Of a stretch of 64,000 nucleotides of DNA, positions 4,459 to 57,090 are shown one piece after another. A model generated the notes under the pieces. It had not been told where the DNA came from, made no database searches, and saw only the letters and a program-made list of their open reading frames with translations. A program made the translations under genes and the position numbers. The DNA comes from Psammoneis japonica (Eukaryota), in the NCBI GenBank assembly GCA_008632985.1, contig QPGO01000133.1:124001-188000 (forward strand), read 5' to 3'. Each line of letters starts with the position of its first letter. Position 1 is the stretch's first letter.

Positions 4459-4775
4459 GCACTCCATCTCATCGAGCAGCACTGGAAAAGGCTCAAATGA
4501 GTTGAGAACATTGCTGCAGCTGCACTGCCCCAGCAAAAAAAAAAACTCAGACAAAAGCTCAAAAAAAAGGTGAAGAGGAGGCTCAACTTGACAGACAAAC
4601 TTTTCTTGCTTTGGCAGCACTCCATCTAATCGAGCAGCGCTGGAAAAGGCTCAAATGAGTTGAGAAAATTGCTGCAGCTGCACTGCCCCAGCAAAAAAAA
4701 AGCTCAAACAAGAGCTTGAAAAAAGGTGAAGAGGAGGCTCAACTTGACAGACAAACTTTTCTTGCTTTGGCAGCA
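4459..4775. repeat. Tandem direct duplication, ~158-bp unit x2
   Basis: gcactccatct...ttttcttgctttggcagca starts at 4459 and again at 4617, near-identical. Confidence 0.9.
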
Positions 4776-5663
4776 GCATGCTGACAAAACTGGCACATTG
4801 AAGCAATCTGCTGTCAAGATCGCTCAACAGAAGGGGGTGGGTGCTCAAAAGCCCAGCCCGGCTCTCTTGAAAATGACTGCTCATTTCTAATGAATGAGAC
4901 AATGCCCCCCAAGCAACAGTGGCAGCTCAGCTGGAGGAGATGTTCTCAGCAAGAGTGGCGCCAATGACACAAAGTCGACACCCTGGGAGCGAGCTGTGCA
5001 GCTTTTGTTCCTTTTTTTGTTGTGGGCTGGCTGTCTCTTCCACGGCATCCACGTCTGACTGTGCTCCCTGCCAGCAATTGGAATCAGGTTAGTTGGGCTC
5101 AGGTTGAGGTGGCAGGAATGGACTGAAGCCCAAAACATGTGCAGACAGACCGCCAGTGCAACTCTCCTCATTGCAAGTGGCAACACCCAATTTCCTGGAG
5201 CAAAAGGTGAGAGAAAAAGACTTTGAAAATGTGGGGTGGACACAAATCTTTTGACACACATGGCAAATGTTGCCAAGGGGTGGGAGACTCCAATGAGACA
5301 AAGAAATTTGTTCAGGCAAATAACGACGTCTGCACAGAAGTTGCTGTCCCACAGCACGATGATTCGTCCGGGCTTGTGTTCAACGCTCGTCGTGCGTCCC
5401 GCCGCAAATTCCGTTCGTGCGTTCAACGGTCGAACTTTTTATACCGTCACTTATGTTACATAATTGTGTCGAAATAAACGGATGTCTGTCCAACATACGG
5501 CACCCGTAGACGTACAGTAACGTCGAATTTTGAAATTGTGGCGAATGCTCCTGCGGCGAAGAGCAAAGAGCTGAAGACCCACAGGAAAGGTTCGTTCACG
5601 GCATATCATCAACAACATAACAGCATCGTAACTATCAGCCCATCGCTTGAAGCAGATAGCGAC

Positions 5664-7054
5664 ATGACGAACGGGGAAAGCAGGCATAGAAATCGGATCT
5701 TGAATTGGAGTATGTTGAGGTTTGTGATTTTGATTGTTCTTTGTTTTTATTTACTATACACGAACGAAAGCCTCTTCCACTCGTTCATTCCAAAGATCAT
5801 TGGGGAACCGGAACTGGAAGCATCGCAAGGCAATTATTTGTTTGACAGAGATAAAATTCACGAAAGTGCACCATTTGAAGCAGAACTGCCAGAGGCTCTT
5901 TTACCCGTCACATTTTCCGGCTGTTGCAGTGGGCCTAAAACGGGTTGGCATGCAACATGCTTTACAGAGAAAGCGTGCAATGTTTCCTATTATCCATTTT
6001 CATCCCCAAAAGAGGCGTCTTACTTTCGAAAGTGGGAACTAAGCAGAAATGAGTCACATATATTGAGACAGAAATGCCGTGAATACGCGGAGGGAAACCG
6101 CCTCCTACACGGTGGTGTTCGTCGGAGATATTGCCGACAGACGAGAAATATCCAATGGGTTGTAGCATTATCTCCATGGGCGCTGGTTCAGGACCTTATG
6201 ACCGTGCTTTGGTATTTCCGCAAGGAAAGCTGGTATTTTGTGGGATCCCTAAAGCCGGAATCACGCAGTGGCTTCAGTTTCTGCGCTTCACTTATGGCGC
6301 GAAGGATTACTTGAGTGTGCCATATATCAAATTAGACCTTGACTATTCCAGGCTCGACGTTATGACCGAAGAAGTGAAGGACGAAATTTGGAGAGGCAAA
6401 TCGTGGACGAAGGCGATCTTTATTCGTAACCCTGCCGAACGTTTATTGTCAGGGTATCTCGACAAGATTGGTCCAGCCAATGTGACCTTCACAGAGTTCG
6501 TCGACTTTCTTGCAATGAAGAACATTACCAGACAGAATTCAACAAACGACCAATTAAAAGGCATGTACACGGGGCTGTCATGGCAAACTGATCCACACTT
6601 TAGACCACAAGCTTGGGCATGCGGATTGTCTGAGGAACTGGACACGTTTCATTACGTCGCGTCAATGGACCGTGTCGACTTCCATACGAAGGCCTTGCTG
6701 CAGCAAGTGAATATGTGGGAGTCCTTTGGAAGGCATTATCGTATGACAAGTAATGAAACAAGCTCAAAAAATGAACCATGGGCAATGTGGCCTCCTGAAG
6801 TCCAGCAACAGCAAGACGAGGAAGTAGTATTAGGTTTCCAGCAACATCAGGTTGGCGAGATTACCGACTCGGCGACAAGGCACAACACTGGTGCAACAAG
6901 CAAGATGAAAGAATATTATACTCCAGAGCTTATGAAGAGGGTGCGAGAAGTTTATTGGATGGACTTTGCTTTGTGGGATGCACTGCAAGAGGCCGACAAG
7001 GAAGGCCTTGTACACGGCAAAGACATTGCAAAGAAACTGAACCCAAATTGCTGA
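5664..7054 (+). CDS. Carbohydrate sulfotransferase, copy 2 (tandem paralog; 1-bp frameshift at ~6095)
   Basis: Collinear with 35..1408 from MTNGES to KKLNPNC. ORFs 5538..6314 and 6131..7054 join if one A is added in gggaaaccg (copy 1 has agaaaacct). Confidence 0.85.
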
Positions 7055-7199
7055 AATAGTGAACGTTCGCATTGTTTTCCCCTCGTTTCACTAGCTTTTT
7101 TTTGCTTGAGGCTGACTCGCTCTCTTTGACCATTCAATGTCTGACGCGGACTAAAGAGTTGTTCATTCTCGCACTTAGGCCTTTTTTGACAATGACAAG

Positions 7200-8860
7200 A
7201 ACTGTGCTGCTGCACTCGGACCAGCTTTCACAAAGATGTGCCGATGTCAAACTAGTTGTTGCTTCTAAATCGTTTTGCATGAGATTGGAACTTTGAGTGC
7301 ACAGTCAATGGCGGAGACACATTTTGTGTCAACCTGCAACAAATTGACACACATCCTGGTGAAACTCATCTCTTGACACAAAAAAGGAGCAATGATGTTG
7401 AGCCCCCCAGCAACCAAAAAAAAGATGTGCTCTTGCCTTCCAGCTCCTCCTTCTTCCAAGGAACCTTGACCTTCATCATTGCTTTGCCAGCAGCAAAAGA
7501 AGTGCAAACATTCAGAACTTGCCATTTCTTGATCAAATTGCAGCATTTCATCTACCCTCTTGGGCAAAAAACTTGGCTGTGAGAGCTGTTTGCCAGCACT
7601 TGTCAACTCTGAACCCTTGGGTGTGGTTTGGCTGTGCTTTCTCTCTTGCCCTAAAATGACACATCTGCCAAGCAAGTGCTGCAGCTTTCACTGACCCTTT
7701 TTGCAGCAGCACACTCAGCAACTTCAAAAAGGGTCAGATTTTTTTTGAATTTTTGAGTTTGACCTGTGTGACATGTTCTGCAGCTGCGGTGTGATTCTTT
7801 GCTGACAACAAACCCTTTCACCCAGAAACCTCTTTCTTCTCCAAGCTGCCCTTGGTTGATGCCACATCAGGCAATTTTTTGTGATGTTGGGCTTCATGCA
7901 GAACCAAGTGCTGGCTGCCATCGCTCTGTGTGTTGGCCTGTGCTGCAGATGCACACAAAAGAGAATGAATTTTTGGCAACAACACATGGTGTTTTGGCTG
8001 TGTGCACATTTTTGCCTGCATCAGACAATGGACTCTGACATTTGGTGCTGACTGGCCACCTCTCTTGCTGTCCTTGAGAGCTTGCTTTGTGACAACTCTG
8101 TGCACAGAAATGCCTCATCTGCAAGTGCGCTGATGTGAAAGTGGGTTTTGTGCATGTGATCTTGCGCACGCTGGTGTGCCCTCCCACTTGCAACACACAA
8201 GCTCATGCTTCACACTTTCGTGAGTTGCTTTCTTGTCATGTTGCAAACTTTCAAACTCAACACACAAGGAAAAAGCCCTTGTGACTGGATCCAAACGTTT
8301 GCTTGTTGACAGCAATGCCCTGTGATGAGTGAGAAGCCATGTGTGCTGCAACAGTGCTCCTGGGTCGGCACATGCAGGAGACCCAGCAGCAGCTGAAATC
8401 ACTTCTGCCACAAAGAAATGGCAAGGCTGGACTGAAAGAATCTTCTTCTCAGATGTCCAGCCGCGACTTTGTCACACCTTTTCATCTCATCATGGCTTTT
8501 TTGCCTTGCTTGAGTGTGCTCCACAAGAAAAACCAAAAGCAACGTTGCTTGCCATCCACAAACCTGTTGATGCATGTCTGACGTTTGATTGATGCACAAA
8601 GAATGAAAAAAAAACATGACAATTTGGTGGACGGACACAGGATCGTCCAAATTAGTCGCCATGGTTGCGCATGTTCAATGTGTTGGTGATAGCTCAAATG
8701 CAGATGCATTGACGCGGTGCGCAGCGCGCCGTTCACAACACCTTGCACCTTGCCGCATTCTTGCTTCGCGATGCATTCATCAATCCCTCTCGGCTATGTG
8801 CTGGGTGCAACCTGCTTGTGCGTTGCCACCATTTAGACTAAAACTGGCCAGACAGACAAC
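7200..8860. mobile_element. Degenerate TpA/CpG-depleted domain 2
   Basis: Same composition as domain 1. The right edge (8620-8860) keeps CpG but is still TA-poor. Confidence 0.6.
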
Positions 8861-13280: not shown

Positions 13281-14305
13281 ATGAGAAATGCAGCTAGTTA
13301 CATCCAAGCCCTGAACGACGACAGCGTACAACTTACGTTGGAGTTATCCTCGTTGCGATCTCCTCGTAAATATGTTGCTAAATCTGCTAAGGGACGAGCG
13401 CACATCAATAGAGGTGAGAAGAACAACGCCTCTCACGATCAACAATCCCTACGTTTAAACATCTGCCATTTACGCACCTGATGCTTCACACAGCACGACA
13501 AGGAGGATGAGGAAAAGTACTCCTATACCAATCAATCCCATCCTCCAAACGTGTTGAAATCCCTTGCGTTGGTTTGCACAACTTGGGGATTCTCACAACA
13601 GTAGATGCGACATCAACCGAGCATCATCGAAAGAAAGCGATCACTGATCTGGCTGAATGGATGATTGCGATGATTCGGCTTTGTGAGACTGCTGAAAACG
13701 AAGCTGTTGTGCTGTTGCTTACTTATGAAGGAGATCTCCCCATAAATAATTACAAGTCAGCTAACGCGCTTGTTTAACAGACATTTGTATCATCGAAATT
13801 TGTCATAGGTGGATGCACGTGCATGATTGGACAGGCCCTTTCCATAAAAGTCGATCGACTCCCGCGACAGGAGGTGGACACGCACATCTACCATGCTACC
13901 TACCGCCGGTACCGGTATGTACAGTACCACACCCTTTACCATACCCCAGTAAGCTACAGTAGAGTAGAAGGTATTTTAGTCGTAACTCTCTATTGTAGCT
14001 AACCAGCACCACGTACGGTACGAGAAGCGAAGCAAGTCAGTTTAGGTCACGGGACGCGATAGCAAACATATTGTCATTCCATAGCTAGAGTAATTTCGCA
14101 CGTTTTCGTTTTAGTGCCGGATTAAGAGCTTTGTGGCTTGTTAGCGCCAAAGTTTCGCCTACCCTCTAGAGTGCAGTATCCCATACACTCGTACAAGATG
14201 TACCTCCCTAAACAGGCTGAAATCTAAACGATATTTTATAGAGCAACAGTTACGTTTGTACGCGAGCTAGGCTACTAATCTCCGATGCAATGACATGCCG
14301 AATTG

Positions 14306-15850
14306 CTAGCCACCGTGTACTTTTGGGCACAGGCGTGGATTGACAATGAGCTCCAGCTTTCTATTGACAGGCTCTGTGAACGGACTTGCCTCGATTGCCA
14401 CCCCTTGTTCGGCGTTGATTCGCTCCCCACGGCCTCCGACCTCCATTAGATTTTCATGCTCCATAAGGTGATTAAGCCCCTGCAAGAAGAGAGTAGCGAA
14501 AGCACACATTAGAAACGGTCAAGACCAAGCTTTGTTGTTGTACTTCTTCTTTTAGTGTGCACGTACCAGGTTGTGACAAATTTCGTGTGAGACAACGGAA
14601 GCCACAAGTTCTCGTCCCCGGTCAAATCCAAGGAGACTTGACCCAATAAACATAGCGAACCCATTACCAGGGACAAGAGCAAGACCGGCGGCTGTGTTTG
14701 TATTTAAAGCGGAAAAGCCAGGCGTAACCCTCACGAGAAACATATTCAGGACAAGTGGATTGGGATCCAGAAGTGAAGGGCCAGCTTGATTTGCTGCCAA
14801 CGAAATCATCTGTCTTAAATCTTTCGTAGATCGATAACCCCCTAGTTGTTGGGTGCCTCGGTTAGCAAAGGAGTTGTTCCATATCCTCGGAATCGCTTTG
14901 AATGTCACACATACGCAGACTTGTTCAAATGTGTCCGAAACGTAGTCCTCAATGGCGGCTCTTTGGTCTGCGGTGCCAAAGGCTGTCGCAGTGTCAGAAC
15001 CGTCGTCATTAGAAACAACAATCATATTTACTGTGACTGAAAGGCACATCCAGAAGATGGCGTGGGCGGAGCTGGGGAAGGGGGAGGGGTAGGGGCTGGG
15101 GATGGCGGGTATTTCGGAGGTGCGGCAGCGGGTCGAAGGGGGCAGTATCCGTAGCGGTCGCAACTAGAACCAGCACCAATGAACCTGCCCCCTTTCCCTC
15201 TACAGGTTTTCTCTTTAAGCACGCTGCATCTTCCGTGTTGGCCTTCGCAACAAGCTCCATATGCAATCGGCTTAGGTACCCAAAGAAAAACGTGAGACGT
15301 GAACTTCGTCTTTCAACTCGAATGGTGTTAGCGTCATGAGACTTACGCAATTTCTCTTATTGCATTTTGTTCCGAATCCATGAAATATTCCGCGTTTATT
15401 TAAACAAGTGCGTGCTTTGAGAACGACACACCTCCTTTCTCCAAACAGACAGCATGCACCGGGCTTGAAAGAGGGGCATGTGTGTGGCTCGCATTTTGAA
15501 GATCCAACAAACCGGCCTCCTCTTCTATCGCAGCTTTTCTTACTGATCAAAAGACATTTGTTATTTTTCTTTGGAACACAGCACGATCCAGAACTATAGA
15601 TATTCTGCATTTCTACTGCGTCTGCTGCTAGCTATCAATGTCGAAACCAAAAAGCACGATGAGAAGCACGGCGAAACACTGGCGCATGACAAATGACGTC
15701 TTCTATTGACCTACCTCGACACCATCCTTCGGCGTCATTTCAGTTTGATCCAGAGTCTCTTTTATAGCCTCAGTATGACCAGACTGCACGCATATGCCAC
15801 GAGCGAAAGGGGTGAGCAAGGGATAGGACGATCAACCTTTGTGGTATCAT
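14306..15850 (-). CDS. Metzincin-type Zn metalloprotease with GACC repeats, copy B
   Basis: Paralog of copy A. Introns at 15632-15714, 15271-15346 and 14480-14566 (HEICHNL|GLNH). Two 1-bp frameshifts (~15822, ~15043). Putative signal peptide MIPQRLIVLSLLTPFARG. Confidence 0.75.
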
Positions 15851-19374: not shown

Positions 19375-19690
19375 CTCTACAACATGAGCCACTCTCTCTA
19401 GTAGAGAGAAGGAATAGAAAATATAGAAACATGCAGTATGCTGACTAGGTTTCAAAGATAATTTTTTTCATTTTTTGAGATAGACTTTCGAGGTTGTGGT
19501 ACCTGCCAGTTCTAGACTACTCACTGTAGAGCTTTGTTCTCTCTCTAGCTGCCACAACCTAGCTCTTTAGAGCTCTACTCTCTACTCTACTACTAGAGAG
19601 TAGTCTCTGGATCAGCTTTTAGGCCCTCTAACTCTAGCTACTACTAAAGAGAGCTCTCTCTACTCTAGAGTAGAGGAGAGTAGTAGCTAC
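19370..19690. repeat. CTA/TAG/AGAG-rich low-complexity intergenic tract
   Basis: For example agctctactctctactctactactagagagtagtctct and tactctagagtagaggagagtagtagctac. Confidence 0.75.
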
Positions 19691-19909
19691 GGCCGAGGAG
19701 TCACGAGTTTTCCAAATTGCGGCAAGACCCGAATTCCTCAGTCCCGTTTGCTCAGGTAGAAATTGAATCGAACAGTAGTACCGCAGGTGGCGCGAGCATT
19801 TTCGCCACGACTCAAGATCCGCGACGTCAAAAACTCAAAACGAGAAGAAAAACCCGGGCTTAGTTGTTTTCACCTCGCACAAAAGCACTGCAACAAAACC
19901 CGACCAACA

Positions 19910-20749
19910 ATGCCCGGCAACTTTGACACAGACATTGACCAGGTCGTCCAAGAAAACAATACAAACATGGACGATGCGCAACCTCGGCCAACACGAAGAC
20001 AAGAACGACGACTCACAGGCGGTATTGCGACAGGTATGGAACAAATCCGCCTTCCTAGTCACGGAACACTCCTTGACGACGACGACGATAGTGATGAGGA
20101 TGATTTCCTACATGATGTATTTCCACTTTCCCCAGCGGGACATAGATCCATATGGGATCCTTGGAACGCAACCTCACTAATGCCACCAGACCGCCGCCTT
20201 CAATTGCAAAGAAGAAGAACGATTGCTTCAATGAATGACATTACGAATAGCGTTTCTCAGAGAGTAACTATTGATCGTACGCCGAGCTTGTTTCTCGGTA
20301 CTTTGAAAGAAATCGATGAGAACAGCGACTCAAGAACAGTGACAACGACATCCGAAATGAGCATGGACAAATCATTACCTGTACATGATGATGCTTCTAC
20401 TGTGTTGTGTGAGGGACTCGTATGGACGAGGAAAAGGAACGCGATATTTACCAACGCAAAGCTAAGCCGTCGATACTTTGTTTTGGAGTCCAATGGAAGT
20501 CTTACCATTTACAAAATCCCAAAGTCTGTCCATGGCAACGTCACTGCCAACTACTACAAGGTTCCAGAACTTGTCGAAAAAACTAGAATCGTCAAGAAGA
20601 TTTCCGCATCCTCTGTGAATATGGGTGATCAGTACAAGGGTCTTGTATTTCAAGACAAGGACGGACACGAAAAACTTTTCTTTGTGAGATCAAAAACTAC
20701 AAGAAAGAAATGGCTCCAATCAAACGAGCGCCTTTCTGGGCCACTCTAA
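19910..20749 (+). CDS. PH-domain protein
   Basis: C-terminal VLCEGLVWTRKRN...RRYFVLESNGSLTIYK...RKKWLQS fits a PH fold; the N-terminus is disordered. Confidence 0.7.
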   Translation: MPGNFDTDIDQVVQENNTNMDDAQPRPTRRQERRLTGGIATGMEQIRLPSHGTLLDDDDDSDEDDFLHDVFPLSPAGHRSIWDPWNATSLMPPDRRLQLQRRRTIASMNDITNSVSQRVTIDRTPSLFLGTLKEIDENSDSRTVTTTSEMSMDKSLPVHDDASTVLCEGLVWTRKRNAIFTNAKLSRRYFVLESNGSLTIYKIPKSVHGNVTANYYKVPELVEKTRIVKKISASSVNMGDQYKGLVFQDKDGHEKLFFVRSKTTRKKWLQSNERLSGPL

Positions 20750-20899
20750 TTTCGAAGAGGAAGCGGCCGTTGGAATGGCATCCTTTTAGAGCAATTGTGC
20801 TATCATTTGGCTTGCGTATTCTATATAGACCTTAATCTCTTTTCTTTATTGCTTTTGACATAACACCTCTACTTAGTACGGTGCTGTTTTTTAAAATAG

Positions 20900-21860
20900 A
20901 AAATTAAGAGAGCCTATGTAGAGCGGAAGGGAACAGCAGAGGGAGGCACGGAGGTAGCTGTAGTGACGGTAGAGTAGAAGGGCCGAAGGACACAGGACGA
21001 AGGGCGTTTAGAGGAAGGTATAGGTGAGGAGGGAGCAGGGAGGGAGGAAGTGAATCGGAGGATGTGCGTAGAAAGGTGTAGAACGACGTTGTAGCGAAGG
21101 GTTTGGGTGGCCCGCTGGGATGGGGAGGCTGTACGGCAGGTGCTCCCAAAGCGATCGGCGGACAGGCGACGCCATGCGAAGTCAGCGGACGGAAGGATTG
21201 CAGACGGAGACGACAAAGCATAGAGGAAGGCGGAGTAGGAGGCAACGGAGTGACGAAAGTCAGGGGAAGAGGACCAGGGCGGCTTGGGCTGAGAGCAGAT
21301 GGAAGAAGATGTGGGGCCAAAGAGCAAGCGGTGAGCAAAGCAGCCGAGGCCACCAAGGTGATCGACGGTGAAGGGGAGCAGGAAGATGCCATCGTTGTCA
21401 AGCGAAGAAACAACAAGGATCCATCAGTGGAGGAAGCAGAGGGGCCAAGGAACTTCAATCTCATGCTCGAGTGGTGTGCCTCAGTTGAAATGGGAGAAGA
21501 GGGAGCAGGCAGACCTGGAGGAGGGCGAGAAGGAGCTTGAGGGACAGCAACGTCCACTGCAATGTGATGATGACGGAAAGGAGCAGAAAGGGAGGCAGGA
21601 GGGGGAACTGAAATGCCGACATCGGCGGGACGGAGAAGCGGGCGGGTGGGGAGCAGGTTGGCAGGCTGGAGGTGAACTTCATGGGGGAGCGACAGAATTT
21701 TGCAAGGGGTCCCAGGGTTTGGGCTGGGATGAAAACAGCATCGCGGAGACCATTAGAAAGCTTGGGCTTGTGGGCACGGCGGCAAGAAAAGGCATGGTCA
21801 TTTTTGGCTTCTGCTCACCAGCACAGTGGAGTGAGGGACATTCGATCGCGATGGTCAATC
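20900..21860 (-). mobile_element. 5'-truncated non-LTR retrotransposon relic, RLE type (CRE/Ambal-like), element 1
   Basis: Minus-strand translation DHAFSC..HKPKLSNGLRD...LRPADVGI...AVDVAVP...LLPFTVDHLGGLG matches a Zn-knuckle end plus PD-(D/E)xK restriction-like endonuclease. Frameshifted, with strong purine/pyrimidine strand skew. Confidence 0.75.
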
Positions 21861-22071
21861 ATTTATGCGCTGGTAACAAATTTTAGTAGGATTCTACATA
21901 CTTGCTCCGTTAGTACAATCCCACTGAACACGCGGGTTGAAGTGAAGTTGCTCGCGTTTTCACGTGCTTTTTCTTGTCTGTGCAGGAAAGATCCCGTGCT
22001 GGTCTCATTCTTATGGCCTTGTGTCATGTTGTTGTTGTTGTGGTAATCGCAATAGAGAGCAACGCAACACC

Positions 22072-22755
22072 ATGGCTGATCCAGAAGGAGTTTTACCGCA
22101 AGACAATGAGCCACGCTTGCTTCAAGATCGCAAGGTCTCAAAAGGTATGGCGGATGGAATTGCTCAGCCTTCGCTACCTTCACGCAAGGCTTCCACCCAG
22201 CCAGAATCAGTGACGGGAGATCGACGTCCCTCGGCTGGTGTAGCTCTGTCTCTGGCACCGCCGTCGCGTAAGATATCTCCTCCTGTTCGTGGTAATACGG
22301 TTGAGACGGCCTCGTCCTTGGAAGACGTGCCGCTTCCGGAAGAAGAAGAAGAAGCGCCGATTCCCCAAGATGCTGCTTTTCCTACTACGGCAGACATGGC
22401 CAATTGCGTCCTGTGCGAAGGATATGCGACTGACCAAGATGTCGCTACAACGAAAAAGCCATGGATTCGTCTTATAGAACGTCTGCACCCGGACAGTGCA
22501 GACAATGGCAGATACTATCTGGTGCTCTTGTACAACGGCACCCTCTTGTTCTTTCGCAGCGACGAGGATCGCATCAATCACCAGAATCTCATCAAGGTTC
22601 GGACAGTTCAAGATATTACTCAAGGGCGCGAAGATTCACTAGTCTTTTCTCAACTTCATGGAAAAAAGTCATCCAACAAGATGTACAACATTGAGTCTTC
22701 CCAAGACATGTCCCGTTGGATTGATGCGTCAGAATCGATGTTACCCAAGCAGTAA
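22072..22755 (+). CDS. PH-domain protein (distant paralog of 19910..20749)
   Basis: VLCEGYATD...RYYLVLLYNGTLLFFRS...MSRWIDAS. Confidence 0.7.
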   Translation: MADPEGVLPQDNEPRLLQDRKVSKGMADGIAQPSLPSRKASTQPESVTGDRRPSAGVALSLAPPSRKISPPVRGNTVETASSLEDVPLPEEEEEAPIPQDAAFPTTADMANCVLCEGYATDQDVATTKKPWIRLIERLHPDSADNGRYYLVLLYNGTLLFFRSDEDRINHQNLIKVRTVQDITQGREDSLVFSQLHGKKSSNKMYNIESSQDMSRWIDASESMLPKQ

Positions 22756-22999: not shown

Positions 23000-25900
23000 G
23001 GACGGTTGGCAAGTTGGCTGGCTGGTCTTATGGAAGGTTCTCTTGGTGACGATGCCTTTTCTGTGCTGAAATCATTGAGAACAACTGAGAGTGCGGCCCT
23101 GTCAGAGCAGCGCAACAAGAAAAGAAATGGACAAAATTTAATGTCATGGAAGGCGGTTTGCCCAGGTGAAAACACTCTCTGATTTTGTTGTGGCACATGG
23201 CACCACTCTGGTGCTTTGTCTCAGTCAGGCAGCAGCAGGGTGGCTTTCTTCTTTGGCCATTGTCGCGCATTTTGTGCATCATTGCATCTAAAACATGGTG
23301 ACAATGCAGAGAGTCCCAAGCCACTTGCTCTTTTTGCAGTTGGCTTGCAGAGTGACCAAAACCCTTTTGGGTGGTGTCTTGAGCTTGCTGCTCTCTTTTC
23401 GGTGCATCTGGGAGAGTGAAGTCATTGTGCCATTTTCTTTGCAGTGCAAGAAATTCTGCACCCAACACCTCAAAAAATTCTCTCCCAGCACCTTCCACAT
23501 GGTGTCCAGCAAGACAGGTTGTGTGCTTGCATGCATGGAGATTTTTGCATGCAATGTGAAGTGCCCGCAGCAAACCACAAATGAAAAAAAGATTTTGAAG
23601 AGACCCAGGGGGGCACAGGTTTGCCGTGGCTTCTTGTGGGGCGCTTTTGTCCAGCCAAGCACTCACAAGGGTTGCTTCACACCCCTTGATGCCTTTCATT
23701 GCACCCAATTCTGCCTGCTCAGGATCTGCTTTCATCACATGTTTGTGGGTCATGCAGGTCTTTGGCATGCAAGGCCAGCTGTGCGCCAGCCTTGCACTGC
23801 CACCCCAAGTGTTGTCAACCATGCATGCTTTGGACATTGCATGCTTGCTTGGCACCTTTGTTTGAGTGAATGAGGGCATGTCTGCTGTTGCTGCATGTGC
23901 AACGTCAATGCTCTTTGACTTGCAGTGATGACTCTGGGAGATTGGCAGCTGCCCCTTTGTCACAGAGTCAACCCAAAGATGGCATTTGGGGCTGGAAATG
24001 TTGTTGCATTTGGGTGGTTGTGTTTTTTGTTGAACACTCCAGTTGAAACACTGTGGCGGGAGAGCAGCACACAGCCAGCAGAGAGCAAGTGCAAGTTTTT
24101 GCACTGGTTTAAAATCATGGTTGGCTGCAAACCACACACTCGTCTGTTGGTGGGTGTGTGCATGTTTGCATCCAGTGCCAGACCCATGGTGCAAACATCC
24201 AGCTGCAAAATGGCTCACCAGCAACCTTTTCATGAGCATCAGCTGCTGGCACCAATTTGCCAAGCAAGCACTGCACATGGGCATGATGTTGCAGGCAGCT
24301 GCTTTCAAAGTGCTTTTTTGATGTGTGCGCACTTCCAAGTTTGGGGGGAGGAAGTGCTCCTCCAGCTCCAACTGGCACAATGTCCACAATTAAAAACAGA
24401 ACAAAATGTGGGCAAGTTTTGACAAGAGCACCAGCCTTGCTGTCTCTGCTGCGCTATGTTGCTGCCATTGTTTTCAAAAATGTTGGAGCTCACAGACAAT
24501 TGCTGGTGGCATCAGCACATCAGTTGGCACTGGATCCATCAGAGGCCCAAATCTGTGAATCCTCCCACCGGCAGACAACCAGACCCCAGTCTGCCCAAAA
24601 ACATGTGTGAGTGCAAGCATGCAAATTTGTTCATGACAAATCAGTCTGATTTGGCACAAATCACACCTGCTCATGACAAACTGCAGGTGTGATTTGCAAA
24701 CAACAAATGTCAAAGTTTGCAAGTCAAGATCTTGTCAACCCATGGTGAAATTTAACATGTGCTTGTGCCCACACAAAATGTTCAGCTGAACAGCAGTTGT
24801 CCAAAGTGCATCTTCTGTGATGGAGCACTGCCATGGAATCTCACATTGAACAATGAAAAATTCCAAATCTTTCAACTGACCAAGTCACTCACTTCTTGTG
24901 ATGTCTCGTTTAACTTGATCACCACCACGGATGTGAATGATGACACAAGTGCAGTTGTCTGGTGGTCTTGCAACTTCTGCACATCATCTGCAAAGAGAGT
25001 CGCCACTGGAGGCAATTCTTCTGCACACTCCCTGTGCTGCACTGTGATTGGTCTGAAGAAGCAGCCTTTTTTTCATTGCCAGCAGATTCTTCAGAAACAC
25101 TGGAAGAGGGGCCTGTGTTTGCTCGTTGTTTTTTGTTTCATGTGTTTGCCTGCGCTTGCTGTGGTGGCACTGCTTTGTGTGTCATTGCCTGCCCCCCCCC
25201 CCCCCCCCTTTTTTTTGTGCCTCTGTGTCATTGGAAATGGCAAAGCTGCTGACGTCAGTTTTGTGCCATGCTCAACATCAATTCCCCAGCAAAACTTGCA
25301 GGGAAATTTGTCTTTGCACAATGTGCTTGTTTGATCTGGGTGTTTTGTGCCAAGCGCAAGTGTGGTGCTGAGAAAAGCTTCTTCTTTGACATGGTCTTTC
25401 ACCTTGATGATGTCTCTGCCAGCCTTTGATCATCGGCCATCTGCTTCCTCAGATTGGTCTGTCTCTGAGCCACAGTCAGCACAACATTTGCTCTTTTTTT
25501 GCATCATGTGTTTGCCTGCACTTGCCATGGTGGTGCTGCTTTGCATGCCGTTGCATGCTGCCCCCCCCCCCCCCCCCCTTTTGTGTTTTCTCTTGACTTG
25601 AAAAAGTGGCATGGACTCAAAATTGCACCCCTGAGTTTCAAAAACATTTCAACTGTTTGTGACTGCATGTGTGAATGATGACACAAATGGAATTGTCTGT
25701 GGTTGTTTCACCTTCTGTGTGTCATCTGCGTGGAGAGTCACCCCACAAGAGGCGGCTCTTTGGCGCTTCCTGTGCTGCACCATGATTGGTCACAAGAAGA
25801 GGCCTCTTCCTCATTGCCAGCAGCTTCTTCAAAATCACTGGAAGGGAGACCTGCTGATGCTTGTTCCCACATGCTGCCATTTTCTTGAGCCAAGTCAAAA

Positions 25901-27850
25901 GAGAGTTGTCATGGCAGTCGGGAGATTTCTCCACACTGCCTGTGGGGGGTGGGTGCACAAATCTCACCCTCTGTCAACAATCTGTCAAAACAAAGAAAGC
26001 AAAAATGGTGGGGTGAAATTCATGCAGAAGTCTTGTGGAGAGGAAAAAAATGGCAACAGAAGCCACTTCACACAATGGACCCAACTGAGTTGTGGGAGCT
26101 CACCCACTGTTGACATTGCTTTGACTTTGCCAAAGCCAGAAAAAGTTGACAGACAGAAAATTTGCACAAAAAAACATCACACAGAGGACAAACAAATTGC
26201 AGTGCAAGTTGCTTCACATGATGAACCAAGAGGATTTGTGGCTGCCTTGCTGCGGGCATTGCCCCAACAAGCAAGCATGTCAACATCCAACGTGAAAGCA
26301 CCAAGTGCAAAAATTTCATTGACACCTTTGACAAACTCCCAAACAGAAATGTCTGTGGCAACAATTGGGTGGTGCAGCTGCACAGATTTGAGAATGAGAA
26401 AACCGTGCAAGACTGGCACCGCTGTTGTTGCACCATGGCTGGCCAAGCTGGCAACTTGGAAACTCAGCAACAAAAACAGTTTGCAGCCAGTTGAGCAAAA
26501 TGAGAAATGGCTTGCACTTGCACGCAAATGGCAAGGTTTCATTGTTGTTGCTTGCACACATGTGTTGGAGGCAGATCAGATTGAAATGCACTGCCCAAAG
26601 CAGAAAAAGACTTGCCGTGCTTCCCATGCATGAAAAGAAACAGCAGCCAGCTTGTCTTTGTGGCCACTTTTCCATGTCTCTGGAAGCAGATCCAAGGCAA
26701 ATTTGGTCATGGGGCAAATGCCAATGAGCAAACATGCACTCCAATCAGAGATGGGCCTGCACAACAAATGTTTGAGAGTGCGCTCACCTGGCCAAAGTGC
26801 CGAATGATGCCCTGCGACTCAGCACACACCCTTTCTTGCCTCTCTGATGTCACCCACTTCTCCAAAGCCAGATTTTTGACAATGCTGCATCCAACACAAT
26901 TGCCTGAAACCTTTTGACTCTGTTGGCCAATTGTGCACCACCCTGACAGTTGCCAAGGCAGCAAAGCTGTTGTTGCGTCTTTCCAACAAAAGGTGTGGGG
27001 ACTTTGAGACATGCTGTGAGCCAGGGTTGGCACCCCTTTGAACAAAACAACAGCTTTGTTCACACAATGCACAAGTGCACCAGTTGGACAGAAGGTGCTG
27101 CCCCACCAAAGGAGAAGGGAAGATCTGAGAGAAAGTGCAGCTGAAGAGATCAATCTTGTGCTCACAAAGCTGCTGCTGCGCAGCACCACATGCGCTTGCC
27201 CAAGTTTTCTGCACAAGAGAAGTGGTGCTCTGTGTCTCCAAATCTGACTCAAAAACAAAACATGGAAAATTCCACCTCAAGTGCCCAGAGTGCAGGAGGT
27301 CAAGGAGGAGCTGCTCTTGCCTGCAGTGTGCGCCACCATGCCAATCTGTCATTTTTCTGGTGCAGCTGCATGTTGCAGCACATCACATCTCATCCTCTTT
27401 TTAAATCAAATGTCTTCACTGTTTGCAGCAATCTGTGCTTGCTGCTTGCCCTGATGCTGATGCTGCCTGGCACTGGGGGGCTGTGGCAGCGCTGCTTCGC
27501 ACAGCTCCTTTGTGTGAGTGTGGGAGCACTCTGTGGCGGCGCAGCTGTGCGCTGCTGAGCTCTCATTTTGCAACAAATGCAGGTGTCAAGTGTGAGACAC
27601 AATGGTGCACACACAAAGAGCTCAAGCAAAGGTCAGTGTGTGGTGCCAAAAGTGCCACCCCCCCTCTCTCAAATGCCGCGTTTTGGCAGCTTGTTTGATT
27701 TTCAAAAAAGGCTGGTGGCACTGCCACAGCTTTTGCATGGAATTTCAGTGTTTTTCTGCAGCATGAAAAAGGATTTTCATTGGACTTTGTGGACACATGT
27801 CAACCATCTGCTGTGTCTGCCAAATGCCACAAAGTCCACAGCTGCCAGCT
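23000..27850. mobile_element. Degenerate TpA/CpG-depleted domain with internal diverged repeats
   Basis: By-eye count for 23221-23820: 1 TA and about 7 CG in 600 bp. Tyr-free spurious ORFs up to 453 aa. Confidence 0.7.
24915..25870. repeat. Two pairs of diverged direct repeats with poly-C tracts
   Basis: About 24930-25130 matches about 25670-25865. About 25138-25225 matches about 25504-25595, each ending in a long C run. Confidence 0.8.
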
Positions 27851-29330
27851 CAGAGAGTGTGCTTTAAGTGAGAACCAGATGTTTGTGGGGTCGGCAGTTG
27901 TGGTGTTGGGGAAATGGGTGGCGGAGGGAGCGTGCGGAGCGCGCTGGGAGAGGGAGAGAAAAAGGGTTGGCCGAGGGTGCGGACGGATGGTCGGGAGGAG
28001 GAGTTGGTGACGGAGGGATGGCGGAGGAGGAAAGCTTGATGTGCAGAGAGATGGTTGGAGAGAGCAAAGCCAAAGTCAAGGCTGAGGGTTTGGGAAGCCC
28101 AAAGCAGGGGTGTGGCAGCATGGCAGGAGGAGCCGAAGTGGGCGGGGGAAAGTTGTTTCCAGGCCGCGTTAGATTGGGTGAGGAGGTTGGAAGGAGCTAA
28201 AAGGGAGTTGGTGAAGGCAGAGAAGGATGCTTGAGAGTTAGAGAAAGAGGATGGATGGGGCCAGGGTGGTTTGGGGGGGAGGGGGGGGGGCAGAGGAGGA
28301 GGTGGTGGTGGAGGCACCAAAAAAGAAAAGATGGAAGTGGCATCCGATGCCTCCCAGGTGATTGAAGGCAAAAGGGAGGAGGAAGAGGCCTGCTTGGTTG
28401 ATGGCGTTGATGATGTCAGAACCGTGGGCGGAGGATGTAGAGCGGCCGAGGAGCTTGTCCCGAGTGCTGCTGAGGTGAGCCTTGCCAAGTGGGTTTTCAG
28501 GGACAGGCAAACCAGGTGCAGGAGGCGGGGGAGCGGGCGGCACGGTGACATCAATTGCCATGAATTGATGGGTGGATGGGGCGTCTGGTGGTGTGAAGCC
28601 GGGGGTGAGTTGGGCGCCAACGTCGGCGGGGGCATTTTAAAGGGTGGTCGGGTGGGAGTCCAACAGGGTCAAGGTAGACTTGTTGGCGGGATCGGCAGAG
28701 GCCGCACAGAGGACCAAGGGTCTCGATGATTGTGTGGGCCGTGTCGCGGATGTGGTTGGATGGGGGGCCTTTGTGCATTTTGGAGCAAGCAAAGGCGTGA
28801 TCGCCGCATGGGTCGGGGCGGGCATGACCACATGGGCAGTTGTGTTGGGAGAGGTTGGGTGGGATGATGGGGAGACGGAGCTTGTGCAAGAGGAGGATCG
28901 TGAAAAGATGGGGCGGAAGGCGATTGGAGGGTGGGGGATGCGGGATGGGGAGTGAAGGCATGGGCTTGTGAGGGGCGACAGCAGGGATGGGAGTGTCGGT
29001 TGGATGGAAGGATCGGCGAGGATTAAGGGGAGGGTGTGGTGTGTGTGATGGTGCAGGTGGAGGCGCTGTGAGAGACTGCGCAGGTTGTGGCATTCGACAG
29101 CGTGCGAAAGGGAGGCAAAAGAGGGGGAGTCGAGCTTGAGAAGGGTGGGAGCGCAGTGGCGGAAGATTTGGCAGAGGGAGAGGGTGGAGCGGGGGTTGGA
29201 CCATGAACCGAGAGTGGAAGAGCGGCTTGAGGGAAGGTGGAAGATGGCGCCACCGGTTAGTGGGATGCCATGTTTGGTGTAGCGGATGGAGCGGAGGAGC
29301 ACATCCAGCTCGATCCCCACAGAACTATTT
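27850..29330 (-). mobile_element. 5'-truncated RLE-type non-LTR retrotransposon relic (CRE/Ambal-like), element 2
   Basis: KLRLPI...CPCGHARPDPCGDHAFACSKMHKGPPSNHIRD (CCHC knuckle), then PADVG, AIDVTVP and LLPFAFNHLGGIG. Homologous to element 1, with several frameshifts. Confidence 0.8.
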
Positions 29331-30755: not shown

Positions 30756-31209
30756 GGCATTTTTTGCTCGAAGCAATTTTTAATACTACTGCATACAGCC
30801 TAACATTTTGGGTATAAACAAGCTACTAAATTACATACACTTTTTTTAATCTACTCCTCTCTACCTTATGTTATCTCGTTGTAAACCTAGAACAATGGCA
30901 TTCGATGCCGTTCGAAAGCAAGCGCAATGGGCGTCAACAGACATCTGTCTGGCGACGGGGATTTATGCCGAAAGCGAATCTTCCCGTATCTCTCGGAGAA
31001 TCATGTCACTATGTAGAATCTTCAATACCCAATAATGGTAATTACCGTTGAATGGTTCTTTCTGCAACCCATGACGTCGACTGCATTAAAACAAAGACAT
31101 TATGCGAACCCAAAGGACATTCTTCGGGTTCGCAATGCCAACTTCGCTGAAGCGTGGTGACACGAACGGTTAAAACACGGAGCGGGTCATCATAATCCTA
31201 TGTATTATT

Positions 31210-32450
31210 GGCGTGTGTCCTTCAAGCTCAAGGGCAAGAAGCGCAGCGAGCCGAACCGAGCCGCAGCCACACGCAAGGTCATCATCCGATTTCAATCTTT
31301 CCAGTCGGTGTCGGTCGCCACATCATGTTCCTGCTCTCTCTCCTCCTCGTTCTCTTCCTCACCAGATGAGCCATCTGTGTGTGGTGTGTGTGTGTGTGTG
31401 TGNNNNNNNNNNNGGGGGGGGGCAATCAGCCTCTTTGGATGCCGCCACATGTCGTCCGAAGTGTGGCGTCCTCTTCGCTGCCATGAAACACCTTGAGTGT
31501 GTTTGCAGCAGCACACGAGGCACCAATCCACACTGTTGCCTTGGCTTGTTGTGAGGACCTTAACAGGCAGTTCAAGAATTGAGAGTCTGCAAACTCGGCT
31601 GGGGGATCTTTTTCCTTTTTGAGCTCTTCTTTTCCATCGGCTGAAAATGCTTGTGACAAAGGTCACCTGTTCCAGCCCCAGGTGATGAGATTTTTGGAGC
31701 AGCTGGGCACATTGAACTCCTTTCAAAGTTGATCATTTCAAAAATCAAAAGGCGAGCATGCACAAAAAAACAAAAGTTTTGTGTGCACTGCCTCGCCCTT
31801 CGATTTGGGAAAAAAACTGACTTGAAGGCTGGCATTTGCTGCTGACACCATGGTTGTGTCATGCCAAACTTTGTTTTGCTGGGATTGTGCAGAGCAAGCT
31901 CTGATTCATGGTGCCTGAATTTGGTGGAATTGGCACACGCAACATTCCACCGTGCCCATTGCAACAGGCACAGAGACAGAAAACACTGCCATCCACAATG
32001 CAAAACTGCAGCTGAAAGGGCTGTTTTTAGAACTCTTTTTGGCTCCATGCACTCCAGCCTGAGCGGGCATTAAAAATCTAAACAGCACATCCAGATTCTG
32101 GTGAGCTCAATCTCCCTTGAAGACAAAATGGTCAAGACCACATGTCGCGCTGTTGTTCCTGCCTTGCATTGGCATGAGTTGCTCTTGCACCAAGCACTTG
32201 GCAGAAGTGGCAGCAAAGTCACCCTCACATTCAAAACAGAGGCCCATCAGCAAACCACTGGCACTCAAAACAAATTGATGCCCAACAGCACCAGAGATGT
32301 TGTCCTTCACATGTCTTGAGATCTTCAAGCCGCAGATTGTGTTCAAACTCGCATCACAGTGCAGGTTGTAATCATTGGCAATTGGGCAGATCTTGTTCCC
32401 GTCCCCACTGTTCATCATTTCATGCAAAAATTCTCTGCATGCTTTGTTGA
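31210..32450. mobile_element. Degenerate TpA-depleted domain containing a (TG)n run and an assembly gap
   Basis: TA nearly absent. (TG)n at about 31384-31402; 11 Ns at 31403-31413. Confidence 0.6.
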
Positions 32451-34227: not shown

Positions 34228-37200
34228 CTAAGTTTGCTTGGCAGCCTCAGACGCGGCTGCATCTTCAACATTTACTAGTGCTGATTGCACCTTTGATTGG
34301 GCATCTTCCTCATCATCGCTCTTTCGACGGTTTCGAATGGCATTTAAAATAGACTCCCGCCCTTCCTCTTGCGGCATCAGGACACCGCCTAAGGACTCGC
34401 GCTCCCGGTCATATATGCTCTTGAGCCTAGAGTCGGTTGTCTTTTCGTACACGACGCCATTTGCAAAATCACTCTTGGCTTGGTCCGACGCACTATGAAG
34501 CATATCATTCACCATTAATACCAAAGACGGCCCCCTCTTTTCTTTCGGTGTTGTTTTCTTGCCTCCTTTTTTCTTGTCCTTCAGAGCCTTCCCATCATCT
34601 TTCTTATTTCCTCCACTTTCCTTTTTGCTTGGATTCTGGGCCTCTCGCTTCTTCATCGCCGCTTCGCGTCTAGCTTTGGCTTCTTCTTGGACTTTGTATT
34701 TTCTAACTGCGTCATTCAAATAAATTACAAACTGGGAAAGGATCGCAAGCAAAGATACCGCAGCACGTTCCCCACCCCCTTCCCCGCAGTACTTGGACAA
34801 CTCCTTACAAGCCGTCAGCGCGGCATCCTTTTCGGAGTCAACCTGGGCAATCATGCTCTTGGCCTCAGCTAAAAATGACTCAAGCCTCTCGATTCCCTCC
34901 TTTGGTGATCCGAAGTTTGTGGCTTCCTTTTCTTTCCCGGCTTTCACCGCTGCCTTGACTTTCCGTACAGACTCGGCTTTGATTGAATTCATCATTTTGC
35001 TCCTTGGAGAACTGACGTCTTGCTTTGCCTCGACAACTCCCGACACATATGCATCCTCAAGGTGTCCACACGTCGTAATCGCATTGAGTATTTGACCAAC
35101 GGACGATGGATTCTTTTCTTCTGATTCTGGCTTCTGCGTCGCCGCCAAGAATGCATCTCGTTTTGCAAACGTCTTTGGCTTTGCTTGTTCCTCTTTTGAC
35201 CCTTTGGCTTTGATGGCTGCCAAAAGGGCGTTACGAGGGTCAGCATCAGCCGAGTCGTTGCTCATACCAGCATCAGCGCCGAACTTTTTGCTCATGCTTC
35301 GCGTTACAGGTTTATCAGAATTATCGTTCTTCATTTTCACAAGCTCAGTCTTGCATTGGTTGAGAGCTCCCGTCATGTCTTTGGCATCTTTAATCATATC
35401 GCTCAGTGCCATTCGGCCTGCCGTTTGAACGTCTGGGAATTCGTCCGTCAGTTCCAATGTTTCGCTTTTGTTCTTTGCCATAAACGTCATGACGATGTAG
35501 TCGAGCACGGTAGTCTTTCCATCTGAGCTTTTGGTCTGCGTGAGCTTCAACAAAGAATCAAATTTAAAGCCCGCTGCTCCGCCAGTGCGAGTTCCCTCAT
35601 TCATGATGTTTCCAACCTGTAGCACCATCTCAAGGACGTCCTGCAGCTTTTCACTCTGGACGACTTGCTGGCATACTGTCTTTAGCAGCTGAAATTGTGA
35701 AATCGACTCTGATACACTATCGTTGAAAGTATCCATGGTCTGCATAACTCGAACCTTGACTTCTATACGTTTCACGTTGACCAGCTCACGAAAGAACAAT
35801 TCAGCAGGAACCAGCTTCTTGTCCGGACCCTTGTAACTTGCAATAGCTTTCATCTCTGAAGCGTTAGGAAGTAAATCGCTCATAAACTGACACCGTTCTC
35901 CTTGGATATTACGGTTCGGGTCGAGGTTGGAAATCGTCTGGGCTAGCTCTTTGTGGGTGAAGTCCTTGAATGCTTTGAGGCTGATAGCGACATTGTTGGC
36001 TCTGTTTAAATCAATCAGCTTCGCCATTTCCTCACCCGTTCCATTACCAGCCGAACCACTTCCCTTTGTTCCCTTTCCTCCTTTGGGATTGCTTTTCTTC
36101 TGGAATAATTCAACAAGCGTCGAGAAATCTTTTCGCTCTGCTTCAACCTTTCTCTTCTTATTAGCCTGCCAGACGCTGTCGTTAAGCTCTTCTCCCGATA
36201 GTGGAGTCCAATGGAGAGCGACTAACTTGCTTCCCGTGGCGCCTTTTGGCTTTGGCGCTTTGCTTGCTGGAGACGAATCGCCGAGAACGGCCGATATCAT
36301 TTTCTCACTGATCCCATCACGAACCATTTTGTGTCTCACGGCGTCCCTGGGTATGCTCATTTTCAGCATTTTGCGATACGGTTCAACAGCTTTCTCCTCA
36401 TCAGCAGTCAGTGCGTCCGTATCCTTTGCTTTTTCGGGGGCCAACACCGCGTCAATAATCCTGGTAGGGATATTCTCCTTCTCCATTCTGTGACGAACCG
36501 CATCAACAGGTACCATACGCTTCACCATTAGTCGATACTTAATCGCGACCTTTTCATCTTCGTAAGAAAGCGCCCCCGATATGTTTTGACTTCCAGAAGT
36601 AGTCTTGTCTGGACCTAGCACCGCAACGACAATCTTTGCGTCCACGCTGTCTTTCTTCATCTTGTGGCGTACAGCCTCGGCCGGCACCATCATCTTTAAC
36701 ATCTTGCGATATGGTGCAGCTACTTTCTCTTCTTCCGCAGATAAGTCCGTGGTCGCTGATGCTAGTGAGTCCTTTGAATCATTTCGATCCGGGCCAAGAA
36801 CGGCGGTAATGATCGTGGAATCGATTTTGTCCTTCGTCATTCTGTGGCGAACAGCATCGGAAGGTACCATCATTTTGAGCATTTTTCGATAGGTAGCCGC
36901 GATCTTCTCTTCTGCTTCTGAGAGACAATCTGCCTTTTTCTCCTTGGACTCGGTAGGATGAGCGTTGTCATTCATCAAAACCGAATCAACAATTTTGACG
37001 GCAACCTTGTCTTTTAACATTCGGTGGCGGACAGCTTCTGAAGGTACTCCCATCTTTAGCATTTTGTGATACGTTTCTGCAATCTTCCTTTCTTCTTCCG
37101 TCAACTTTGTACCTCCAGCATCTTCGCGTGCGGCAGCGGTACCTCCGAGTACCGACTGAATAATTTCCTCAGATACACTCTCCAGAGCCATTTTGTGGCG

Positions 37201-52422: not shown

Positions 52423-52453
<31 letters not shown>

Positions 52454-56435: not shown

Positions 56436-57090
56436 TTTGTACTACCTTGCAACGAGAACCCGTAATGGTGGCTCTTTTGCTACTCTGCCAAACCTGTCGC
56501 AATTATACCAGTAGTGTTGGGTGCATTGTCCAATCTATGCTGTGCACAGCATGTGCAAGTGTCACAGAAACAAGAAGCAGCAAGTTAAAGCCAGCTAATT
56601 GTCGAGCCTCTTTTTGTTTTCGGCATGGATGGATCACCTTCCTTATTGTCGACTCTCTTTTTATTTTCGGTATGGATCGCCATCCGATATGTTTTCTAAC
56701 GCAATTTACTTAGCAGACGATGGAGTACCCGTTTGCTAAAAACTAAAAACCAAATCATACGTAGCGACGATCCTAGAGGGTTTCTTAGATGGTACAAACG
56801 GTAGTGACGATGCTGCGTCGATGAATGAGCATAGATTTCACTTTACTAGAAAGTAAAAGTGAGATACGGACGAACAAGAAGTTGTTATTCTATCCGTGTC
56901 GCGGATCTTTACTGATCTAGGTTACCTCTCGAGCTACTGGTATTGAATAAACTTGTCGCTCCCATATTATACTTCAGACAATGCGCACCCATCATAAAGG
57001 CAATCGAATCACATCAATCCTTTTACGAACAAACTGTCGTTACTTTCCGATACAGACCCAGAACCAACTCTGCGTCAACATATGCCTTCT

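Follow-up and report, generated by a model that had tools for sequence, protein, structure and literature searches.

A TpA step inside a degenerate R2-like retrotransposon copy, probably inherited with its family

Introduction

Deaminases leave footprints in mobile DNA, as exemplified by the G→A (APOBEC3) and A→G (ADAR) hypermutation of retroviruses and retrotransposons. Fungal RIP converts CpA to TpA and raises TA. A specificity for TpA with a preference for TAY is closer to enzymes of the TadA/ADAT type than to APOBEC3 or ADAR. The closest described counterpart of the locus reported here is found in Bigelowiella natans. A 2026 preprint reports that new mutations in mutation-accumulation lines of this species are ~1000-fold commoner in two integrated viral regions than elsewhere; every one of them hits a TpA, and nearly all are A→G or T→C (10.64898/2026.01.13.699255). 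The same text counts 124 clusters that are TpA-poor and CpA+TpG-rich in the 95-Mb genome, describes RT and endonuclease-RT domains as overrepresented in TpA-poor CDS, and proposes an ADAT-like adenine deaminase (10.64898/2026.01.13.699255). According to full-text searches, TpA-directed hypermutation of foreign DNA is so far in print only for a chlorarachniophyte, in this one preprint; the searches returned no report of such TpA depletion in diatoms or other algae.

We analyzed a 64,000-nt stretch of DNA (the window), which is eukaryotic and intron-poor. An initial annotation had noticed that TA dinucleotides are frequent in one part of a retrotransposon and nearly absent from the adjacent part, and had suggested, as the reason, GTAG→GCAG mutation within a chromatin-defined footprint at the locus. 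Here we describe the element, the direction of the change, and its distribution among sister copies in the same genome.

Results

The retrotransposon copy

Contig depth and protein colinearity show that the 0.97-kb piece at 20890–21860 (minus strand) is one 5′-truncated, degenerate copy of an R2-like non-LTR retrotransposon (RT + CCHC + RLE type) belonging to a high-copy family. Its sense strand is the minus strand and is strongly C-rich, its 3′ end lies at ~20890, and the RT part is missing owing to the 5′ truncation. The copy has two portions. The tail (20890–21240, −) retains TA, with an observed/expected ratio (O/E) of ~1.25–1.27 and a CG O/E of ~1.15, and by translation is composed of the last ~108 codons of the ORF (21240–20917), the stop codon (20914–20916), and a 3′ UTR of ~24 nt. 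The body (21241–21860, −) is purged of TA (O/E 0.04), has at least two frameshifts, and in translation still shows traces of a CCHC motif (DHAFSC), of the nuclease core (RPAD..IAVDV), and of LLPFTVDHLGG (21381–21349). The step is marked by the first retained Tyr codon (TAC, 21235–21237, −), which is codon 63 of the frame 21423–20917. Aside from the frameshifts, the inactivating changes include LQP in place of a conserved LEP, and in the tail an Arg in place of an invariant Trp and a Cys in place of a conserved Tyr. To judge from these lesions in its sequence, the window copy is a dead element. The Cys codon (TGC, 21136–21138, −) stands at the Tyr of FGSTY, where eight of nine relatives have TA, and is one TA→TG change in a tail that is otherwise intact.

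The initial annotation had taken both parts to belong to a single RLE element, and this is borne out. Over four protein segments, one of which (21288–20998) spans the TA step, the minus strand from 21799 to 20998 matches a second window copy (28802–27985) in order; it is colinear with intact relatives as well. The frame 21423–20917 runs through 21240 uninterrupted and aligns with relatives via LLPFTVDHLGG, PPW, and FGSTY..P.QWA.Q.L.LN, the last of which lies in the TA-rich part. Moreover, contigs of other copies bridge 21240. The cross-step colinearity and the bridging contigs rule out a junction of two unrelated elements at 21240. The step falls among the codons for the C-terminal helices of the nuclease domain, inside the frame, and coincides with neither a CDS/UTR nor a domain border; a CDS/UTR boundary as its cause is ruled out by the relatives’ ORFs, which extend to ~25 nt from the 3′ end. 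We found no tandem repeats within the element, and the tail shows no special RNA fold (z = +0.29 against shuffles; z = −0.16 for the body as control).

A search of a protein collection with the frame 21423–20917 (169 aa) gave seven distant relatives of 40–47% identity, and the 282-aa frame of the element had none among 5075 candidates; a ‘shorter’ search likewise yielded no further copies. Relatives were also found at 14 loci in a metagenome scan. Two of these, L002 (1161 aa) and L008 (1169 aa), have intact ORFs with a Pfam RVT_1 domain (34.6 and 33.1 bits, respectively; cut-off 29.6) and the C.C..GDH.F.C / E..RPAD..IDVT region at the C-terminus. Fold comparison reveals that the C-terminal CCHC of the relatives is followed by a restriction-like (PD-(D/E)xK) endonuclease fold, as in R2. 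The PDB sequence search gave at best E = 0.017, to an R2 RT region. Nucleotide likeness to the 14 metagenome loci is confined to the 60–70 nt of the LLPFTVDHLGG region, with no close copy among them, and an autonomous partner with the same tail was not found.

The element lies between two plus-strand ORFs. The upstream one (19760–20749, +) has its stop codon ~140 nt before the element’s 3′ end, a normal TA content, and no Pfam match; the downstream one (22072–22755, +), identified as a reading frame, starts with the ATG at 22072. It is separated from the element’s 5′ junction by a 210-nt spacer of likewise normal TA content, whose TAs begin at 21864 and 21874.

The TA step

The TA step is real. 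The left part of the element (20904–21240, 337 nt) has 16 TAs, nine of them in GTAG, along with four GCAG. In the right part (21241–21840, 600 nt), GCAG occurs 10 times, GTAG never, and TA once (21754, TTAG). G content is high in both parts (43% and 40%, respectively), and the contrast in TA density (16/336 vs 1/599) gives p = 7e-7 by Fisher test. Mononucleotide shuffling of the right part yields 23.9 ± 3.9 TAs, and none of 10,000 shuffles was as low as one; shuffling of the left part yields 12.7 ± 2.8, so that the observed 16 are nothing unusual. A two-rate likelihood model places the change best at 21237 (2-lnL support interval 21093–21279). Along the element, TA is dense at 20892–21092 and thin from there to 21236, after which 518 nt have none.

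Other dinucleotides change at the same spot. The CpG O/E drops from ~1.11–1.15 on the left to ~0.57–0.62 on the right (Fisher p = 0.044), and the CA and TG O/E rise from 0.98 and 0.89 to 1.61 and 1.32, respectively. The body has lost TpA (O/E 0.04) and gained CpA and TpG. Over ~175 conceptual codons, it has no Tyr codon.

Direction of the change

Relatives from the 14 metagenome loci have a TA O/E of 0.34–0.91 in the homologous 620-nt body and 0.53–1.13 in the 350-nt tail. In the closer relatives the value goes from 0.62 to 1.08 (L002), 0.70 to 1.13 (L003), 0.69 to 1.03 (L005), and 0.46 to 0.93 (L006). Unmutated relatives thus rise 1.5–2-fold at the step, compared with ~30-fold in the window copy (0.04 to ~1.27). 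The initial annotation had argued against intrinsic composition, and the comparison agrees: with 0.46–0.70 in the body and 0.93–1.13 in the tail of the relatives against 0.04 and 1.27 here, composition alone is insufficient.

The sites were polarized by using ungapped tblastx pairs with nine relatives, taking those sites at which at least one relative has TA. The second window copy was dropped as a reference because it is too diverged (41–53% amino acid identity). At 58 such sites in the body, the window copy has no TA, 14 TG, and five CA in the sense strand; at 30 such sites in the tail, it has five TA, four CA, and one TG. The relatives compared with each other (n = 691) have 94 TA (14%), 53 TG (8%), and 83 CA (12%). 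Both the loss of TA from the body (0/58 vs 94/691, p = 0.0006) and the excess of TG (14/58 vs 53/691, p = 0.0002) are significant. The TG:CA ratio of 14:5 differs from that of the relatives (p = 0.003) and not clearly from 1:1 (p = 0.06). Conserved Tyr residues have become Cys at 21138 and in LGYF (now LGCF). Set against its relatives, the TA-free body is a derived, mutational state. It is highly improbable that no mutation process is involved and that the family simply has such a composition, coding in the body and richer in TA at the 3′ end: the relatives’ 1.5–2-fold rise at the same place speaks for it, but it leaves unexplained the ~30-fold step, the retention of TA at 0/58 sites with an excess of TG, and the lack of Tyr in ~175 body codons when both halves are coding in relatives.

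As TG in the sense strand is CA in the plus strand, the GTAG→GCAG direction put forward in the initial annotation is supported by the 14 TG, five CA, and no TA at the 58 body sites. It does not extend to all GCAG of the body. At 21546, 21585, and 21597 the family majority has GCGG, which indicates that these three derive from CpG decay rather than from former GTAG. The CpG co-depletion may be a separate, methylation-driven decay of the same DNA.

TA-purged DNA in the rest of the window

Six further blocks of the window are poor in both TA and CG. They are located at 1962–5321, 7266–8653, 23139–27865, 31206–32369, 50583–55166, and 61691–64000, have sharp edges, and make up 27% of the window. 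The blocks have O/E values of 0.04 for TA, 0.21 for CG, 1.77 for CA, and 1.82 for TG; outside them, the window has 0.57 for TA and 1.01 for CG. The matching enrichment of CA and TG in these large blocks means that both strands are affected, which argues for action at the DNA level there. A Pfam search with the long frames inside the blocks gave no matches, and within the window we found no paralogous purged blocks except short tandem repeats. The TA-poor block at 31206–32369 includes an assembly gap of 11 N (31403–31413).

One tandem repeat with a 738-nt period lies in a purged block (24932–25127 vs 25670–25865). Its units show double mismatches of CA versus TG, e.g., GCACAT/GTGTGT. In the global alignment of 24932–25865 these are the largest class of adjacent double mismatches (6/70); only the first ~200 columns are clearly homologous, and they contain at least four of the six. 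Such mismatches mark an ancestral TA or CG that was resolved independently in the two units, in place, after the duplication.

The second copy of the element type (27880–29320, −) is diverged from the first, at 41–53% amino acid identity, and adjoins the block 23139–27865, which is stripped of both TA and CG. It is TA-purged throughout, including its tail (TA O/E 0.16), and has mostly kept CG (0.76), which means that TpA loss and CpG loss are separable. Among the metagenome relatives, L009 (a contig of 1457 nt) is patchy in TA: its first 600 nt have three, the following 600 have 11, and the final 257 have one. Its CpG is normal, and His and Cys abound in its translation. Elements of this type have thus been partially purged outside the window too. 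Since the second copy and L009 are TA-poor in the tail as well, tails are not generally immune.

The TAs surviving in purged stretches of the window are not a random set. Of 56 such TAs, 38 are in TTAA or CTAA/TTAG, contexts that account for 12% of TAs elsewhere, and no ATAC/GTAT, ATAT, or GTAC survives. YTAR sites, which have no T-A-pyrimidine on either strand, are those that survive, and this suggests a flanking-base preference of the mutator. In the element’s tail, 14 of the 16 TAs are in contexts whose survival in the purged DNA of the window is at most 0.025, and the lone TA of the body is a TTAG. As the tail TAs are of removable contexts, the tail was either really unexposed or renewed.

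Several further features of the window were observed. The segments 1–1638 and 5630–7277 are a segmental duplication of 86.6% identity that carries a Sulfotransfer_2 gene; a TA/CG-poor block starts exactly at the homology end of each duplicate, and the two blocks are not alignable. The intervals 13801–14400, 19401–19800, and 56601–57000 have the opposite skew, in that their TA reaches or exceeds expectation and their CA+TG falls far short of it; 19401–19600 has one CG. These intervals may be promoters or DNA in another mutational state. At 34228–38304 (−) lies a single-exon ORF of 1358 aa with an FH2 formin domain, preceded by seven repeats of ~180 nt (36325–37448) with a match to the C-terminal portion of the CCDC53 (WASH complex) profile.

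Sister copies in the same genome

Two DNA runs of one organism contain the stretch, and contigs of one of them (X1) were placed on it at a likeness of at least 80%; the runs X3 (possibly RNA) and X4 gave no contigs matching the stretch. The element received 379 X1 contigs, comprising 42 at 99% or more, 106 at 95–99%, 119 at 90–95%, and 112 below 90%. Their summed depth is 56–61 in the flanks, 6100–6700 at 20868–21080, 2400–3400 at 21081–21222, and ~6000 at 21223–21364, and from ~6000 at 21365 it falls to ~250 at 21791–21861. Compared with the flanks, the element is ~100 times deeper on either side of 21240. Other copies diverge in their flanks at 20889–20891 and 20909, where their loose ends lie; together with the fall in depth toward 21860, this indicates a fixed 3′ end and variable 5′ ends, the pattern of target-primed reverse transcription.

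The family majority was read from the best-supported 40 of 123 differences, each with a differing depth of at least 860. Within this set, the only left-half TA lost in the majority is at 21010 (A>T), and the majority-corrected TA count is 15 in the left 337 nt and four in the right 600 nt. The step is carried by the majority of sister copies. From the depth cut of the table we infer that at each left-half TA no more than about a third, and usually less than 15%, of the depth can differ. A minority of the other copies may have lost tail TAs, as the family picture is built from short contigs and from the best 40 of 123 differences.

The window copy departs from the majority chiefly in its body. 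The four majority TAs of the right half (21312–13, 21486–87, 21491–92, and 21565–66; 63–95% of depth) read TG in the plus strand of the window copy. Its sole body TA (21754–21755) is private, as 85% of the contig depth has G at 21755. Of the TAs of the majority, the window copy thus misses all four on the right and has kept each of the 15 on the left (p = 0.0003). Among the best 40 of 123 differences, a majority CG has become CA or TG at five positions on the right and one on the left, 29/600 right-half and 8/337 left-half sites differ from the majority (p = 0.08), and 21428–29 (TG in the window copy, CA in the majority) is the sole double difference of CA versus TG. The TA losses of 4/4 against 0/15 point to some further loss limited to the body, either at the locus or in the source lineage of the copy. 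Only four indels, all of low share, are among the listed differences. The frameshifts are thus common to the family, which means that dead elements were copied, presumably in trans.

These data bear on the footprint proposed in the initial annotation, which would be set by the locus and spare the end nearest the neighboring gene. In that account, TpA hypermutation and CpG decay struck the right 600 nt only, after insertion, and open or transcribed chromatin by the 3′ end of the upstream gene was spared. A body-limited process at the locus would indeed be expected to give the 4/4 versus 0/15 TA losses, the greater CpG loss on the right (five vs one), and the greater divergence from the majority there (29/600 vs 8/337). 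In-place mutation does occur in this genome, as shown by the CA/TG double differences of the tandem repeat 24932–25865, and TA-purged blocks elsewhere in the window have sharp edges. However, the TA-free zone ends on its right at the element’s 5′ junction, leaving the 210-nt spacer unaffected, a sign that most of the change predates insertion. Moreover, most copies elsewhere in the genome keep the left-half TAs and are without nearly all right-half TAs; at most four or five of the ~15 lost TAs could be local, and only one double difference of CA versus TG from the majority is found in the best 40 of 123, although independent mutation in place should often produce them. A family consensus with the same step had been named in the annotation as what would refute its proposal, and the sister copies largely show it (15 vs 4 TA). 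We therefore regard a locus-set footprint as unlikely and favor a step that came with the family.

A step common to the family could also have arisen in a recombinant founder, in which an unmutated 3′ end was fused to an old purged body through gene conversion or a template switch, so that the step would be a recombination junction. The coincidence of the TpA and CpG steps at one point, the tail composition equal to that of unmutated relatives, and the non-monotonic depth (6100–6700, then 2400–3400 at 21081–21222, then ~6000) are compatible with such a junction. No donor with this tail was found, though, the tail already has inactivating changes (W→R and Y→C), and TA declines in two steps, from dense (20892–21092) to thin (21093–21236) before the body, rather than at one junction. 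A recombinant origin of the founder is thus improbable in our judgment.

Discussion

We consider it probable that the step was mostly present already in the source element or elements of the family and has been carried by most sister copies wherever they landed, rather than being made by chromatin at the locus. In this explanation, a TpA-specific transition process of the kind shown experimentally in B. natans would have stripped TA upstream of codon 63 of the frame 21423–20917, mostly by TA→TG on the sense strand (GTAG→GCAG on the plus strand). That same part would also have lost ~40% of its CpG, while in the last ~340 nt both dinucleotides would have stayed as frequent as in unmutated relatives.

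Why the tail was spared can be conceived in three ways, which we infer and list in order of preference, though the second and third are counted equally possible. First, frameshifted elements may have been copied in trans with only RNAs of intact 3′ end being used, so that the tail TAs would be kept by selection. R2 proteins bind their own 3′ RNA, which makes such selection for an intact 3′ end attractive. Against it, the tail RNA forms no better a fold than its shuffled versions do (z = +0.29), and as protein the tail is degenerate too (invariant W as R, conserved Y as C). Second, an unmutated copy may have supplied a new tail through recombination or template switching. Third, the source copy itself may have straddled a hypermutation boundary.

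A different possibility, which we hold to be rather unlikely but worth spelling out, is that the boundary is a property of targeting: hypermutation would recognize the retrotransposon body and stop ~340 nt before the 3′ end, in the source lineage and again in daughters. The losses of 4 of 4 against 0 of 15 TAs would then be the stop applied again in a daughter copy. One candidate for such targeting is that the sense RNA intermediate is edited with its 3′ end sitting in the RT complex, and another is a guide derived from the body alone. The enzyme would prefer T-A-pyrimidine, since YTAR survives. If this reading is true, the family would offer a natural readout of how an adenine-directed genome defence in eukaryotes is aimed, and the hypermutation would occur in an organism, probably a diatom-like alga, without an earlier description of such a process.

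Returning to the favored explanation, a step inherited with the family is uninformative on chromatin at the locus. Its value lies in that one element has an exposed and an unexposed part and so serves as an internal control: the TA-free state is derived, CpG decay accompanies it, and context matters, as YTAR survives. The family is also a pointer toward separating mutation before insertion from mutation in place, and protection of the 3′ end from selection on it. The process is of a kind already in print, and the window may belong to a lineage other than that of B. natans. Two hints of its affiliation are a sulfotransferase whose nearest Atlas cluster consists mostly of diatom proteins, which is weak, and a URO-D of cyanobacterial type. 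The B. natans-type signature is found here on a far larger share of the DNA (27%), in what seems to be a different alga with few introns.

With regard to known systems, the element resembles R2 and other RLE-bearing non-LTR elements (PDB 8gh6, 8ibw-z, 9dou, 9nl2, and 9nl3), at a sequence identity of only 12–16%. It differs from R2 in having a C-rich sense strand, no RT part, and frameshifts, and its one junction pair gives no evidence for rDNA or other site specificity. Fungal RIP likewise inactivates repeated or mobile DNA by dinucleotide-specific mutation confined to the element (PMC3318451). Its direction is opposite: the window body loses TA and gains CA/TG. No TA excess of the RIP type is found in either part, as the body is nearly TA-free and the left-half TA equals that of the tails of unmutated relatives (0.93–1.13). 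Deaminase footprints are similar in that strand-biased transitions are passed to daughter copies, and the excess of A→G in the sense strand (14:5) is what editing of an RNA intermediate would give. The large blocks differ from such footprints in being affected on both strands.

The comparison with B. natans shows both differences and likeness. The text of the preprint has neither a step inside one retrotransposon, nor a sense-strand bias (14 TG : 5 CA here), nor a YTAR survival context; the words boundary and retrotransposon are absent from it, and flanking bases are not given. In the window blocks, CpG is depleted as well (O/E 0.21), a word that likewise does not appear in that text. TA-poor blocks make up 27% of this window, compared with 124 clusters in the 95-Mb genome of B. 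natans. The two systems share, the CpG co-depletion aside, a loss confined to TpA, a gain of CpA and TpG, the AT→GC direction, sharp clusters at the kilobase scale, and mobile or foreign DNA as the target (10.64898/2026.01.13.699255).
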